Source: an uncultured virus (IMG/VR IMGVR_UViG_2667527431_000001)
Lineage: Duplodnaviria; Heunggongvirae; Uroviricota; Caudoviricetes
Direction: 5' to 3' (one strand)
IMG/VR virus record: IMGVR_UViG_2667527431_000001
DNA: 22,992 nt
Shown: piece after piece, positions 16,113 to 21,406 of the stretch
Layout: every line of letters starts with the position of its first letter
Numbering within the stretch: the stretch's first letter is position 1
Program-made: the position numbers and the translations under genes
Notes under the pieces: model-generated
What the model saw: only the letters and a program-made list of their open reading frames with translations
The model's database searches: none
What the model was told of the DNA's origin: nothing

Positions 16113-16320
16113 AACGGGTACCTATTTGTTCATTCAGTTGTTGGCAGGCTGCACAGCGCGTGCAACTGGTGACGGCCAAACGGCGGGCCAAGGGAATTGA
16201 TGAATCGCAGTCCACACAAAACTCGTAAGACGCAAACACCGGCTGCGCTTTGCGCGCTGCCAGCGCTATGTCGATACGCTCCTGCACCAGGTCATTAGCA
16301 AAATCTGCGATATCAGCCAC
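16102..16320 (-). CDS. TraR/DksA C4 zinc-finger protein (PtrB-like)
   Basis: GTG start; DIADFA (DxxDxA) motif and CVDC...IPLARR...CAACQ. Confidence 0.9.
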   Translation of the reverse strand: MADIADFANDLVQERIDIALAARKAQPVFASYEFCVDCDSSIPLARRLAVTSCTRCAACQQLNEQIGTRYAR

Positions 16321-16831
16321 GGTCAGTACCCCGCGTAGTCGAGTTGACGTAGCAGGCGCGATTGAACATGCCCAGCAGCCCCTGAATACCGCGAAACACC
16401 TGCAAGCGGATCTCGGCCAGTTCGCGGTCATTGACCACACCGTCGCCGATGCTCTTGGCCCAGGTATCAGCCAAATCGGCTACCTGCCGGAAATACACGG
16501 CAAGGCCAGTGGTCAGCGTTTCGGGTATATCGTCGGTATAGGCTTCGGCCAGTTCCTGCCAGATCGTGTCGCCCACCAACGCATGCACCGCATCCAGGAT
16601 GCGGCGGTCTTTAGTCAGCTCCAGGATCTCGGCGAATTCTTGAACATTCACCGTGTGGCTTGGGTGGGTCGGAGACAGCTTGTGCTGCAGCGTGGTGGGA
16701 TTACGGCCGGTGGTGGCGGCGATGGCAGCAGCGCCACCCGGGTAGTCGCGGGCAGCGTGATACAGGGCCAGATCGAGCGGCAGAATTTCGCGGCGCGCTC
16801 GTTGGGTGCAACTAAGAGCAATACGGCTCAT
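16313..16831 (-). CDS. Phage regulatory CII-family protein (186/CP76-like)
   Basis: YPGGAAAIA...TLQHKLSP...H and DGVVNDRE motifs; downstream of cro. Confidence 0.85.
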   Translation of the reverse strand: MSRIALSCTQRARREILPLDLALYHAARDYPGGAAAIAATTGRNPTTLQHKLSPTHPSHTVNVQEFAEILELTKDRRILDAVHALVGDTIWQELAEAYTDDIPETLTTGLAVYFRQVADLADTWAKSIGDGVVNDRELAEIRLQVFRGIQGLLGMFNRACYVNSTTRGTDRG

Positions 16832-16891
16832 GGCATTAATCCTTGAATGTTGCCAGTGCCGCGCGGCGTGCTGTGGTGGTACATTTGCCGC

Positions 16892-17161
16892 GTGGCTTGT
16901 AAGGGCCCAAAAAGCCGGTCTAGATTCTTAAGATCGAAACCGGCACCGTGCCGAGGCGAGCGATCCGTCGCTCACCTCTGGCGCAACAGCTGCCTGATCT
17001 GTGGTGGAGAAGGCAGCAACCCAAAGCTTCCGAGCCTTGGAAAGCGCGGTTAAGGGAGGCGGAATTGCATGTGGTGTGCCCGCCTACCTTGACCGCGACC
17101 CGGCGACACTGTGGTGGTGTGTGCTGGGAGGAAATGGGCGGCCTTATTGGTCGCCTTTTTT
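16892..17161 (+). ncRNA. Predicted multi-hairpin small RNA antisense to the cro-cII interval
   Basis: Back-to-back hairpins with UGUGGUG or UCCG loops, G-U pairs favouring the + strand, an extended -10 (TGgTACATT, 16877-16885) and a + strand terminator. The 5' end is uncertain and could be about 16858. Confidence 0.7.
17137..17161 (+). terminator. Intrinsic terminator on the + strand, with no + strand CDS upstream
   Basis: GGCGGCC-TTATT-GGTCGCC-TTTTTT. Confidence 0.8.
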
Positions 17162-17165
17162 CTAT

Positions 17166-17387
17166 CTAGGCCGCCTTGGTTTCCGTCACACCGAAGTGAT
17201 CAAGAACCTCAGCGAGCGATACACGACCTTCGCTTTGGCGGGTCAATGACTTGATCAGCGAAACGCTTGGGTCTTTGCTGGCGTACTTAACGTGCAAACG
17301 CAGGTAGTTGACCGCGATCTTGCAACGCCCGGCGTAAGCCTGCAGTGCGTCTGAATCTAAGCTGTCGATGTAGTCACGCAATTTCAT
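17166..17387 (-). CDS. cro: Cro-like HTH regulator
   Basis: ATG at 17387 with GGAGG RBS; 73 aa (MKLRDYI...YAGRCKIAVNYLR...PS); divergent from the repressor. Confidence 0.85.
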   Translation of the reverse strand: MKLRDYIDSLDSDALQAYAGRCKIAVNYLRLHVKYASKDPSVSLIKSLTRQSEGRVSLAEVLDHFGVTETKAA

Positions 17388-17409
17388 GTGGTGTACCTCC
17401 GGGTGACGC

Positions 17410-17481
17410 AATTTAACCACAAAGGTTAACTATTGCAATACCTCTAAGGACATTCACCCCATAGGTTAATCTGGGCACAAT
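17410..17481. promoter_or_regulatory. Immunity switch: PR-like and PRM-like promoters with 17-bp operators
   Basis: Minus strand TTGCAA-N17-TAAATT (17438-17410); plus strand TTCACC-N17-CACAAT (17453-17481). Operators TTAACC-N5-GGTTAA (17413-17429) and TTCACC-N5-GGTTAA (17453-17469). Confidence 0.75.
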
Positions 17482-17487
17482 CACTGC

Positions 17488-18135
17488 ATGAGAATTTCAG
17501 ATACTCGCCTGCACAATTTCCGCCAGATCCTGGCCGAAAAAAAACTACGCCTGATCGACATTGCCGAGCTGCTCGGCAAAGCGCCTGCGCAAGTGAGCGC
17601 TTTCGGCGGGAAGAACCCAACCAAAGGAATTGGCGATCAAATTGCGCGTGAAATTGAAAGAGCCCTCAGCCTGCCTAACGGCTCGCTCGACATCCCGCAT
17701 GGTTTTGCAAATTTCGATAACGGCTCTGTACTGGGCTACACCGGCAGGAAACTGCCTGTGATCGGCTCAATCGCTGCAGGCGCCTGGTGCAGTTCTGAAG
17801 AAAACTTTGATCCGCGCGATGCTGAAGAATGGATCGAAGCACCTGGACCGGTTGGGCCGCGTGCATTCATCCTTCGCGTTGAAGGCATCAGCATGGAGCC
17901 CAAGTTTATGGAAGGCGATAAGGTTGTTATCGATCCATCGCTTGACGCTTTCCCTGGCCACTTTGTGGCAGCCAAGCGCACACGCGACGAGGCTACAACG
18001 CTAAAGCAACTTAAACAGGAAGGGAGCGAGTTGTATCTGTACGCGCTCAACCCTGACTGGCCAGAGCGCATTATTCGGATGACTGAAGAGTGGAGCATTT
18101 GTGGGCGGGCTAGGTGGAAGATTTCAGATTTATAG
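17488..18135 (+). CDS. CI/PrtR-like repressor with S24 autopeptidase domain
   Basis: N-terminal HTH, AG cleavage site (IAAGAW), catalytic Ser (VEGISMEP) and Lys (TTLKQL), and ALNPDW. Confidence 0.95.
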   Translation: MRISDTRLHNFRQILAEKKLRLIDIAELLGKAPAQVSAFGGKNPTKGIGDQIAREIERALSLPNGSLDIPHGFANFDNGSVLGYTGRKLPVIGSIAAGAWCSSEENFDPRDAEEWIEAPGPVGPRAFILRVEGISMEPKFMEGDKVVIDPSLDAFPGHFVAAKRTRDEATTLKQLKQEGSELYLYALNPDWPERIIRMTEEWSICGRARWKISDL

Positions 18136-18143
18136 CGGGTATT

Positions 18144-19502
18144 TCAACTGTTATAAACATCATCCACAGGTGCAGGTGCAGGTGCAGGTGCAGGTGCAGG
18201 TGCAGGTGCAGGTGCAGCTTCGCTCTTATTAGAAGTATCTAACTCAGACATATTAATTTTAGATCCTAAATCTTTGGCCAAGTGTGACTTCAACATTTCT
18301 ATTTTCAATCTAGTTCTCAAATGAAACTTTTCAGCAGGATCTATCCCTAAATCTTCAGCAGTCGAAAAAACTGTATTCTTTGCCAAAATGAGCAATTTTG
18401 CCAAAGCAAGGCGTTCTTCCTGAATAGAAAAAATCTTGACCATGAAGGCATGAGCTATCCGCCAAGAATAGTAGATTGCCCCACCTACAACTGCTGCAAA
18501 GGGAAGGCGCAAAAAAAATGCAGCAACAACATCCGCAGCACTCACATAATGAGCAGATAGGAAATTCCCTGCACCATTAAATATCACTGCCACACCCAAC
18601 CCAATAACAAACGCAGGAACCACCATCAGCCGCAAATATACCGCTGCCTGCCCCTTCCCCTCTTTTATATAGTCAGAGAACTCATCTGAGATAAGACTTC
18701 TGTCGTTTACGAGTCCCGAAAGCTGTTGTTTAAGGTCGGCAACCCCATCATTTAAATTTTTAGTTTCTCTTGTTAGTTGTTGTAAATTATTTTGCTTTGC
18801 CTGTAGTTCAACAACTACGTTACTAAGACCTGCCTTCAAAGCCTCTGCATCGGACTCAAGTTCATTCAGGCTCTTTTTCCCTCTTTTAATTGCAACATCT
18901 AACTCCTCAGACTCCTTAGTCTGTTTTGAAATAACATCTACATATTCATCAATCTCTTCAGACAAGGTTTCATGCTTAACTTCTAGCGCAGCAACAGCCT
19001 CCTTCGACTCTTTAACATGTGTAGTAACTTTATAGGCGGCAGATGCAAACTCAACTAGCGTAGAGCGCATATCTTTTGGCCTAGTGAACTCAAAGCCATA
19101 AATAGTAATTGTCGACAACTTAGGCCTTGCAAGAACTCCTTTCGTACGAATAGAAAACTTTGAACAGAACTCATTCACTGATACCCAGCCACCTCTTGAG
19201 CCCACCTCTACAGTTAAAGCTTTTGACTTACCTTCTGAAGTATACAAACACAGTTCAATACTCTTATAAGCCTCACCAATAAAGTCTATTCGCCTGATAA
19301 ATACCGGGGTTGTCGTTTGGAAAACTCTTTCCCGCTTTTCTAAATCAATACTCTTTTTACCAGCCACCTGGGGAGACAACATAGGTGAAAAAAGAGGAGT
19401 AGTAGAGAAGCTCCTAGTTATGTTATCAACTGTAAATGATAACGCTTCAATATTCGAAACCAGCTCATCTAACTCAGTAGTAAATAACGTCATAGTACTC
19501 AC
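18144..19502 (-). CDS. AT-rich cargo gene: coiled-coil protein with two predicted TM helices, function unknown
   Basis: 452-aa ORF in markedly AT-richer DNA. It has a long heptad region, two hydrophobic segments (LMVVPAFVIGLGVAVIF; VVAAFFLRLPFAAVVGGAIYYSW) and an (AP)8 tail. The start could be GTG 19502 or ATG 19493. Confidence 0.85.
   Translation of the reverse strand: MSTMTLFTTELDELVSNIEALSFTVDNITRSFSTTPLFSPMLSPQVAGKKSIDLEKRERVFQTTTPVFIRRIDFIGEAYKSIELCLYTSEGKSKALTVEVGSRGGWVSVNEFCSKFSIRTKGVLARPKLSTITIYGFEFTRPKDMRSTLVEFASAAYKVTTHVKESKEAVAALEVKHETLSEEIDEYVDVISKQTKESEELDVAIKRGKKSLNELESDAEALKAGLSNVVVELQAKQNNLQQLTRETKNLNDGVADLKQQLSGLVNDRSLISDEFSDYIKEGKGQAAVYLRLMVVPAFVIGLGVAVIFNGAGNFLSAHYVSAADVVAAFFLRLPFAAVVGGAIYYSWRIAHAFMVKIFSIQEERLALAKLLILAKNTVFSTAEDLGIDPAEKFHLRTRLKIEMLKSHLAKDLGSKINMSELDTSNKSEAAPAPAPAPAPAPAPAPVDDVYNS
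18167..18217. repeat. Perfect hexanucleotide tandem repeat (CAGGTG)x8.5
   Basis: Read directly; encodes (Ala-Pro)8 on the minus strand. Confidence 0.95.
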
Positions 19503-19607: not shown

Positions 19608-19635
19608 TTGTAAAATTAACCTTTCAGGTTATTAT
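19608..19635 (+). promoter_or_regulatory. PL-like early promoter with repressor operator
   Basis: TTGTAA-N16-TATTAT overlaps TTAACC-TTTCA-GGTTAT (19616-19632), which matches the operators at 17413 and 17453. Confidence 0.72.
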
Positions 19636-19670
19636 CGTCTCACTCTCCCACCACAGAGCGAGGCAACACC

Positions 19671-19850
19671 ATGCACACCACAGCAACCCTGCACGTCCAC
19701 CCAGCGTGCGCCAGTAACCGTCGACTGATCGAGCAGCTGCAAGCCACCACCGGCTGTCTAGTCATCCTTCACAACCACAAACCCCGACTGGTCCCGCACA
19801 GCAACAGCCCTGCCCCGTTCGATCCAAACAACGGAGGGCATGCAGCATGA
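19671..19850 (+). CDS. Small hypothetical phage protein (59 aa), not in the ORF track
   Basis: GAGG RBS; MHTTATLHVHPACASNRRLIEQLQATTG...GGHAA; the stop overlaps the next start (ATGA). Confidence 0.8.
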   Translation: MHTTATLHVHPACASNRRLIEQLQATTGCLVILHNHKPRLVPHSNSPAPFDPNNGGHAA

Positions 19851-21227: not shown

Positions 21228-21268
21228 CCAGCGCTGCCACCACCGGCGCCGCACCAGGAGCACACCAC

Positions 21269-21406
21269 ATGACCCCGACCCAGATCAGCGCACTGATCTT
21301 TTTGACATTGAGCGCGGCCTTGCTCTATTGGCTCGGCTACCGCAACGGCCTGGCCGATGGCCGCAAGCATCACCCTGAATACCGCACCCGGAGAAAAGCG
21401 GCATGA
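21269..21406 (+). CDS. Small single-TM protein (45 aa), not in the ORF track
   Basis: AGGAG RBS; MTPTQISALIFLTLSAALLYWLGYRNGLADGRK...AA; ATGA overlap with the next ORF. Confidence 0.75.
   Translation: MTPTQISALIFLTLSAALLYWLGYRNGLADGRKHHPEYRTRRKAA

Follow-up and report, generated by a model that had tools for sequence, protein, structure and literature searches.

A structured element between cro and cII of Pseudomonas prophages as a putative multivalent antisense RNA gene

The cro-cII gap and its structured element

The IMG/VR record IMGVR_UViG_2667527431_000001, 22,992 nucleotides (nt) of DNA from an uncultured virus of the Caudoviricetes, was analysed over its whole length, to which we refer as the window. 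It represents a lambdoid-type prophage of Pseudomonas, and the subject of this work is the gap between its cro-like and cII-like genes. We propose, with a probability of about 0.7, that this gap encodes a multivalent small RNA (sRNA) of ~270 nt acting in trans as an antisense RNA, much as the phage RNAs c4 and CI do, and blocking translation starts in the early-left operon. The genes framing the gap are the following:

16313-16831, minus strand: gene of the CII/CP76 family
16832-17165: cro-cII gap of 334 nt, between the cII-like ATG (16831) and the cro-like stop (17166)
17166-17387, minus strand: cro-like gene of 73 amino acids (aa), named by position
17488-18135, plus strand: gene of a cI-like S24-peptidase repressor

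The cro-like gene gave no family hit and owes its label to its place. The minus-strand genes also include a TraR-type zinc-finger gene and a Toprim/VapE primase-helicase gene.

An earlier note on this DNA had described the gap as a row of consecutive plus-strand hairpins, four of them with the same TGTGGTG loop. The minimum free energy fold places the hairpins where they had been claimed, and the plus strand, at -167.1 kcal/mol, is much more stable than its shuffled versions (-128.8 ± 5.5 kcal/mol; z-score -7.03; 0 of 100 shuffles equal it). The minus strand likewise folds better than chance (-143.5 kcal/mol; z-score -5.83). The four TGTGGTG copies lie at 16872, 17000, 17070 and 17110, as the note had it, and a fifth plus-strand copy at 17387 makes five within 16872-17393; on both strands of the whole window there are 13 copies against 4.07 ± 2.11 expected, a number that none of 100 shuffles reaches. 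The gap contains these features:

16859-16896 (16858-16896 in the fold), no strand assigned: inverted repeat ('hairpin 1') whose arms flank the -10, seen in fold and alignment
16877-16885, plus strand: putative sRNA promoter, extended -10 TGgTACATT, predicted start ~16892
16892-17161, plus strand: predicted sRNA transcript of ~270 nt, drawn from promoter, terminator, covariation and RNA-library contigs
16894-16907, plus strand: small 5'-proximal hairpin with a GNRA-type loop, GUAA here and GAAA in most relatives
16914-16944, plus strand: hairpin 2, with compensatory changes in the inner helix (AU 42, GC 9, CG 5)
16948-16984, plus strand: hairpin 3, UCCG loop, 4 pairs changed on both sides (helices 2 and 3)
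16989-17017, plus strand: hairpin 4 with seed loop 2, helix 100% paired
17022-17040, plus strand: hairpin 5, UCCG loop, with double-sided changes in 4 of 6 pairs, kept in the P. aeruginosa phages Haddon and U5
17045-17097, plus strand: hairpin 6 with seed loop 3, CATGTGGTGTGC at 17068-17079 (fold, helices 6-8)
17099-17128, plus strand: hairpin 7 with seed loop 4, CTGTGGTGG at 17109-17117, 5 pairs changed on both sides
17136-17161, plus strand: intrinsic terminator, a GC-rich hairpin followed by T6, the T6 being invariant in the 60-sequence alignment

The DNA search sample consisted of 401 genomes of the genus Pseudomonas; the counts given below refer to this sample, or to 60 full-length copies, 59 loci, 70 leaders or 80 named loci. 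The element is present in 64 of the 401 genomes, about one in six of those sampled; the named relatives include P. lundensis, P. saxonica, P. fragi, P. fluorescens, P. koreensis, P. chlororaphis, P. brassicacearum, P. viridiflava and P. cichorii, and the 60 full-length copies are 74-96% identical to it. The mean identity of the gap (85.1%) exceeds that of the adjacent cII gene (80.8%), and in 49 of 59 loci it is the gap that is better conserved. The cro/cI module differs in 47 of the 59 loci, where homology ends at 17163-17176, just past the terminator. Copies that match query positions 185-333 only were at first sight partial; this was rejected, as they are not truncated and have 5' halves of a different, Haddon-like form. 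Six loci (L008, L063, L064, L006, L068 and L070) carry a mosaic sRNA gene, with a Haddon-like 5' half and a 3' half of the window's form. In the phage collection blastn gave no record covering the gap, and tblastn with ORF2 and CII gave only 3 and 4 records, respectively.

Covariation of the stems in homologues, which the earlier note had expected, is found in the related gaps collected here. RNAalifold predicted 90 pairs on the element alignment, 26 of them with compensatory change. Covariation was counted on a reduced structure of 63 pairs, hairpin 1 being excluded, over the 60 full-length copies: 96.9% of the paired cells are retained, against 92.6 ± 0.2% in shuffles and 38-45% in slid controls, and changes on both sides affect 24 of the 63 pairs, the shuffles giving 15.3 ± 1.4 (0 of 500 reach 24) and the slid controls 2-11. 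With compensatory changes beyond both kinds of control, the gap is a real structured RNA element. The small plus-strand open reading frames (ORFs) lying over it (16948-17169 and 17001-17249) were considered and rejected, the alignment having many 1- and 2-nt indels and covarying stem by stem.

The extended -10 stands exactly where the note had placed it, and its TGnTACATT form recurs in 80 of 80 named loci; the terminator hairpin with its T-run, also described there, was recovered too, and a hairpin with a T-run is present in 79 of the 80. Equivalents of the form TGnTAnAnT lie at the same place in the divergent forms and in Haddon. In its signal motifs the element thus has a conserved putative promoter and an intrinsic terminator of its own, as an sRNA gene should. 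The consensus fold is more stable on the plus strand (-99.5 kcal/mol) than on the minus strand (-73.6 kcal/mol), and so are the folds of 54 of the 60 sequences. A comparison of G-U with A-C cells over the plus-strand prediction (683 vs 52) was dropped, being biased by the way in which the structure had been derived, and the strand argument uses helix-specific counts only. These are 119 to 4 in hairpin 7, 160 to 4 in the terminator and 106 to 0 in the 5'-proximal hairpin, which for that reason pairs on the plus strand only.

The RNA libraries provide a further line of evidence. Runs X1-X4 were considered, of which X1 is probably DNA and perhaps the origin of the present sequence, and the parts of the locus not covered by contigs were not counted as evidence. 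In X3 the contig depth is 515 over the element (16934-17111), 3.3 over cII and 43 over cro and cI; in X2 one contig of depth 71.5 (16913-17972) spans the element and continues into cro and cI, the depth over cII being 5.7-8.3. Both are tiny oligo-dT libraries from a single study, and the assembled contigs carry neither strand nor ends. From all these data a plus-strand transcript of about 16892-17161 is favoured, its strand and exact ends being those that the putative signals and helices predict.

Hairpin 1 had been offered in the note as one of four seed loops, or else as promoter DNA or a target in the cII leader. It is more likely promoter DNA within an inverted repeat than a seed loop, and therefore three seed loops, not four, would be working ones; the cII-leader alternative did not hold, the conserved targets lying in the early-left operon described below. 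An inverted repeat around a -10-like hexamer, with other letters, occurs also in Haddon and in the Halomonas phage vB_HmeY_H4907, and its loops there are without the GTGGTG motif. The repeat may also be an operator, or an RNA hairpin of the minus-strand early-right transcript.

Two short motifs flank the hairpins. At 16850-16860, ~32-41 nt upstream of the predicted sRNA start, lies TTGCCAGTGCC, which adjoins the Shine-Dalgarno (SD) sequence of cII (upstream of it, on the other strand). Its counterpart in Haddon, U5 and divergent Pseudomonas forms is CTGCCAGTGCC, kept though the CII proteins are only ~35% identical; the motif may serve as a binding site for an activator or belong to the cII leader. 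The nearly invariant, unpaired GGGAGGAA (17126-17134) separates hairpin 7 from the terminator and resembles an SD on the plus strand and CCUCC on the minus strand.

Complementary sites in the early-left operon

Beyond cI the plus strand carries an operon behind a promoter similar to lambda PL. The features that bear on the putative sRNA, together with one at the cro-like start, are as follows:

19608-19635, plus strand: PL-like promoter TTGTAA-16 nt-TATTAT, overlapping the palindrome TTAACC-N5-GGTTAT (19616-19632)
19637-19664, plus strand: 5' hairpin of the PL-like transcript, with site 1, CCACCACAGA (19648-19657), in its loop and 3' arm
19671-19850, plus strand: ORF1 of 59 aa, first in the PL-like operon (phrog_35204, phrog_13491)
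19673-19682, plus strand: site 2, GCACACCACA, spanning the G of the ATG plus codons 2-4 of ORF1
21260-21271, plus strand: site 3, GCACACCACATG, the SD-AUG spacer and AUG of TM45, a perfect 12-nt complement of loop 3
21269-21406, plus strand: TM45, an unannotated ORF of 45 aa preceded by a strong SD, its product having a hydrophobic stretch and a basic tail
17385-17394, minus strand: cro-like translation start region ACACCACAUG, a 10-nt complement of loop 3 that includes the AUG

ORF1 has neither a Pfam hit nor an arginine-rich stretch, and ESM Atlas gave no function for it; it is followed by a 197-aa ORF, a KilAC-domain ORF, a PrtN/excisionase-like ORF and the integrase gene. The relatives have a PL-like promoter of the form TTGACA-N17-GATATT, with inverted repeats that differ among loci. 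The loop of the 5' hairpin holds CACCACA (site 1), and a second CACCACA (site 2) stands directly after the ATG of ORF1.

The sRNA was compared with the plus strand from 19560 to the end of the window for exact complementary runs of at least 9 nt. There are four such runs on the PL side, all at the ORF1 leader and start or at the TM45 start and none elsewhere: loop 2, TCTGTGGTGG (16998-17007), against site 1 (10 nt, 19648-19657), loop 4 against the same site (9 nt, 19648-19656), and loop 3 against both site 2 (10 nt, 19673-19682) and GCACACCACATG (12 nt, 21260-21271). In none of four systems compared does any of 1000 shuffles reach the observed sum of sRNA-leader runs of at least 8 nt. The duplexes of loop 3 have energies of -26.3 kcal/mol with TM45, -24.5 with cro and -23.6 with ORF1, the first percentile of the background being -23.6 kcal/mol. 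A matrix of whole-molecule RNAduplex energies, cognate against non-cognate, was dropped, all pairs being alike at -36 to -60 kcal/mol because of long artificial duplexes.

RNAalifold applied to the 70 leaders did not recover the 5' hairpin of the PL-like transcript, and therefore the named structure was counted instead. It is paired in 95.2% of cells, against at most 47.1% in slid controls; its compensatory support is weak, with a single pair changed on both sides, a count attained in 368 of 500 shuffles as well. The leader is present in 63 of the 64 genomes with a match to the element. One further genome (G061; its leader is L108) has a PL-type leader (E value 1.5e-14) and no blastn match to the element, and may carry a divergent form of the sRNA. 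A leader match in G175, an unpublished genome (E value 0.0075), was not used.

TM45 is conserved in 30 of 30 relatives examined, its start GGAG-N8-ATG included. The spacer is identical in 25 of them, and in the other 5 it has only C>U or A>G changes, which retain wobble pairing with the loop; the flanks vary freely. TM45 is a candidate sRNA-regulated gene and may be a toxic or kil-like peptide. The cro-like start was also considered as a conserved target and was rejected. The match, CATGTGGTG, occurs at that place only in L001, L002, L010 and L046 (4 of 70 loci), which have this cro allele, and therefore it is regarded as an allele-specific extra and not as a target of the family.

Loops and sites vary together. 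Where loop 2 reads ...GTGGTGG..., site 1 reads ...CACC... (55 of 55 named loci), and where it reads ...GTGGTAA... the site reads ...TACC... in 9 of 11. Loop 3 in the form GTGGTGT accompanies the TM45 spacer CACACCAC in 17 loci, and in the form TTGGTTT it accompanies CAAACCAA in 4 of 4; in these four loci site 2 of ORF1 starts with CAAACC in two and is unrelated (CTACCTA) in the other two.

The same gene order is shared by the P. aeruginosa phages Haddon and U5 and by Halomonas phage vB_HmeY_H4907. In Haddon and U5 the gap has five G/U-rich motifs, one of which is complementary over 15 nt to their leader loop and another over 10 nt to a stretch spanning the ATG. In vB_HmeY_H4907, where the gap is 187 nt long, there are two different 13-nt complements, the first to the leader loop and the second to a stretch spanning the ATG, and a terminator comes after them. 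The annotation of Haddon (PQ571161; L109 3356-3496) places CDS0011, a 46-aa 'hypothetical protein', on the minus strand within the gap and over the putative sRNA gene; it is probably a spurious call.

Proposed mode of action and competing explanations

The sRNA would start near 16892 from its own extended -10 and end at 17161 at its intrinsic terminator, before the end of the convergent cro-like gene is reached. It would fold into the 5' hairpin, six more hairpins and the terminator, three of the hairpins exposing G/U-rich loops able to pair with C/A-rich sites in the cI-controlled, plus-strand PL-like operon. Loop 2, with loop 4 as a back-up, would bind the loop of the 5' hairpin of the PL transcript; loop 3 would bind the G of the AUG and codons 2-4 of ORF1, and also the SD-AUG spacer and AUG of TM45 and, in this allele, the cro start. 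Pairing at the start codons would prevent ribosome binding, and polarity would lower the expression of the downstream genes. We infer in this way that the sRNA represses the early-left genes and takes part in the control of the phage life cycle, as an additional, RNA-based lock beside the cI repressor. The plus-strand, multivalent regulatory sRNA with a role like that of P1 c4 or P4 CI, which the earlier note had put forward, is supported by the covariation, the conserved signals, the depth of the RNA-library contigs, the lack of an Rfam match and the co-varying targets.

A number of observations weigh against this proposal. The co-variation is imperfect: 2 of the 11 loci with the 'AA' form of loop 2 are without a matching site, and in L015 and L218 loop 3 is of the G type but site 2 of the A type. 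Only a few independent events, about one per clade, underlie the changes within Pseudomonas, cognate and non-cognate combinations of loop 2 and site 1 differ by only 3-4 base pairs, and identical protein-binding or DNA sites on both early operons would co-vary likewise. As to the strand, a neutral test on the 47 pairs predicted on both strands gives 33 G-U and 31 A-C cells. Hairpins 3 and 6 contain 22 and 17 A-C cells, respectively, which would be wobble pairs on the minus strand, and pairs switching between A-U and G-C in these hairpins pass through A-C and not only through G-U. Since the neutral counts are equal and these A-C cells are present, the minus-strand read-through RNA may also be constrained in its folding; that strand folds well and must be transcribed in lytic growth. 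A scan for the sigma-70 consensus promoter found no -35/-10 pair at the gap, the -35 being absent, and a clear T-run terminator is absent in Haddon and U5. The RNA evidence consists of contigs from the two oligo-dT libraries plus one metatranscriptome and may include DNA carry-over; the deep X3 contig stops at 17111, short of the terminator.

The sRNA is perfectly antisense to the early-right read-through RNA between cro and cII, and it should therefore act on that RNA or be soaked up by it. In one alternative this is its main function: the plus-strand RNA would trigger cleavage or termination of the cro-cII read-through transcript in the manner of lambda OOP and so set the level of cII and of the replication genes, the matches in trans being secondary. 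Full complementarity to any transcript reading through from PR, and the fact that the element travels with the cII/replication module, homology stopping at 17163-17176 in 47 of 59 loci, speak for such a role in cis. Yet a cis-antisense RNA needs no conserved loops, and it would leave unexplained the co-varying 10-15-nt complements at start codons 2.5-4 kb away and the fact that Haddon, U5 and the Halomonas phage retain such complements; as the main function we regard it as unlikely, and roles in cis and in trans do not exclude each other. The plus-strand transcript may also be read as an establishment leader similar to that from lambda PRE, running antisense through cro into cI with the terminator as an attenuator. 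The promoter lies at the cII start and is directed toward cro and cI, which is the layout of PRE, an activator could bind at the conserved CTGCCAGTGCC ~32-41 nt upstream of the predicted start, and one X2 contig extends from 16913 via cro into cI. Against these points stand the strong terminator (79 of 80 loci), the fall of the X3 depth from 515 to at most 43 before cro, and the swapping of the downstream cro/cI module in 47 of 59 loci in which the element stays. The complementarity in trans would remain under this reading, too. An establishment leader appears very improbable.

In lambda-type nut/N systems the same protein-bound hairpin is found on both early transcripts, and the gene of an arginine-rich antiterminator is first in the left operon. 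The functional RNA might accordingly be the minus strand, with a nutR-like gap and a nutL-like PL leader hairpin read by a phage or host protein, for example for antitermination. The position between cro and cII together with a 5' hairpin on the left operon mirrors the lambdoid nut layout; the minus-strand fold has a z-score of -5.8, the A-C intermediates of hairpins 3 and 6 suit pairing on that strand, and one motif on both transcripts would co-vary with the specificity of the protein. C/A-rich loops do occur on both early transcripts, but the sites are of different types: there are two or three types, each with its own 10-15-nt partner of differing letters, the Halomonas phage has a 13-mer without the shared core, and sites 2 and 3 lie on start codons and not in comparable hairpins. 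The T6 terminator and the extended -10 are plus-strand signals found in 79-80 of 80 loci, and hairpin 7, the terminator and the 5' hairpin are full of A-C mismatches when read on the minus strand. No gene of a known antiterminator family was seen, ORF1 having neither a Pfam hit nor an arginine-rich stretch, and we hold a nut-like function to be decidedly unlikely. The lowest probability of all, close to negligible, we give to repeats acting as DNA, either as origin iterons for the primase-helicase or as regulator sites, with the copies near PL as a second cis element. The motif does occur 4-5 times in one orientation adjoining the replication genes, and inverted copies are found near the PL-like promoter. 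The spacings of 128, 70 and 40 bp are unphased, however, and the stems whose loops carry the motifs show RNA covariation. Each partner has its own counterpart over 10-15 nt, with no single consensus among them, and target copies fall on start codons.

Within the antisense proposal a wider scheme may be outlined, which taken as a whole is tentative and somewhat doubtful. It combines a switch of three RNAs, cross-silencing of heteroimmune relatives and TM45 as a host-killing peptide. A constant supply of the sRNA from the prophage would keep ORF1 and TM45 untranslated despite leakage from cI control, and polarity would add the KilAC, excisionase-like and integrase genes to the silenced set. Read-through RNA from an active early-right promoter carries the perfect complement of every loop and would collide with the sRNA and titrate it, so that early-left proteins would appear only once early-right transcription is committed. 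Because the sRNA/target pair is common to different cI/cro modules, a prophage would silence superinfecting heteroimmune relatives, with variant loop/target pairs as a means of escape from such cross-immunity. TM45 would be the host-killing peptide, restrained in the style of a type I toxin-antitoxin system.

Comparison with known phage RNAs and minor observations

RNA layers of phage immunity are known from few models (P1/P7 c4, P4 CI, P22 sar and lambda OOP), mostly enterobacterial. The putative sRNA resembles P1/P7 c4 (RF01695; discussed in the review PMC12197685) as an antisense RNA of a temperate phage that has recognition sequences in loops and pairs around the ribosome-binding site of an mRNA. 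Variant loop/target pairs, as in P1 and P7, are a further likeness, and so is the small gene with a KilAC domain, the C-terminal domain of antirepressors, in the operon targeted here. Recognition of two sites in the target mRNA by complementary loops, one site being at the ribosome-binding site, is characteristic of C4 RNAs and is displayed here, by complementarity, by loops 2 and 3. The differences are considerable: the sRNA has no match to the C4 covariance model at E values up to 10, would be ~270 nt long against 77 nt for c4, and with three loops serving as seeds would act on no fewer than two mRNAs, and in this allele on three. Moreover, c4 is encoded upstream of the transcript it controls and is processed from it, whereas the sRNA gene lies 2.5-4 kb from its putative targets, beyond cro and cI, with its own -10 and terminator and convergent with the other early operon.

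P4 CI and N15 CA, members of the same Rfam family, are likewise RNA immunity layers and use a single short segment for pairing with two sites of an early transcript. They bring about premature termination within their own operon, out of which the RNA is cut; the sites found here are at start codons of another operon, and the sRNA gave no match to the family. Lambda OOP and P22 sar, both listed in PMC12197685, are similar as short terminated antisense RNAs of the lambdoid immunity and early region. The sRNA is convergent with the early-right operon near cII, a likeness to OOP, and would block translation initiation, a likeness to sar. OOP overlaps the 3' end of cII and acts in cis only, whereas the predicted sRNA (16892-17161) is confined to the cro-cII spacer, upstream of the cII start codon, and has conserved loops that match distant genes. 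In type I toxin-antitoxin systems such as hok/sok, the parallel is an sRNA that masks the ribosome-binding region of a tiny hydrophobic ORF, as predicted here for TM45; the sRNA is not encoded opposite TM45, which is itself part of a longer phage operon.

The architecture, which the earlier note did not recognise, gave no match in the Rfam scans: the whole window gave 0 hits at the gathering score, and cmscan of 16700-17500 at E values up to 10 gave four weak, unrelated hits (mir-2985, mir-1976, CsrC and P11), C4 not being among them and CsrC scoring 12.4 bits against 61. No description of this sRNA was found in the literature searched, which included, within the main texts, parts of a 2025 review of phage sRNAs (PMC12197685) and of a Salmonella prophage transcriptome study (PMC7067206). 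A term search in the main text of the Halomonas phage paper (PMC10580944) found small or antisense RNA nowhere mentioned. In our opinion the sRNA quite probably represents a family of its own, of larger RNAs having several seeds and two or more mRNA targets, which works like c4 and P4 CI without being a member of their family.

If the proposal is true, an RNA layer is added to the lysis-lysogeny switch of Pseudomonas prophages, with a range that takes in P. aeruginosa phages in culture and extends, with a shortened version, to a Halomonas phage. This would open to testing the coupling of the two early operons of a lambdoid phage by RNA, the RNA-based exclusion of heteroimmune relatives by prophages, and the role of the first genes of the left operon and of the small hydrophobic ORF. 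It also flags the likely mis-annotation of the 46-aa 'hypothetical protein' over the RNA gene in Haddon.

Two minor observations concern the surroundings of cI. The palindrome TTAACC-N5-GGTTAA in the cro/cI interval (17413-17429) resembles TTAACC-N5-GGTTAT over the PL-like promoter (19616-19632); the two are probably cI operators, and the relatives have other palindromes at both places. An ORF of 452 aa (18144-19502, minus strand) is placed between cI and the PL-like promoter. Most relatives are without an insert of its size, since the leader there is only ~1.0-1.3 kb from the sRNA gene. Its G+C content is 0.43-0.46 against ~0.59 in the surroundings, and its product has weak family matches of the coiled-coil type, hydrophobic stretches and, at the C-terminus, an Ala-Pro repeat. 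It has the appearance of an inserted moron or a defence-type cargo gene.

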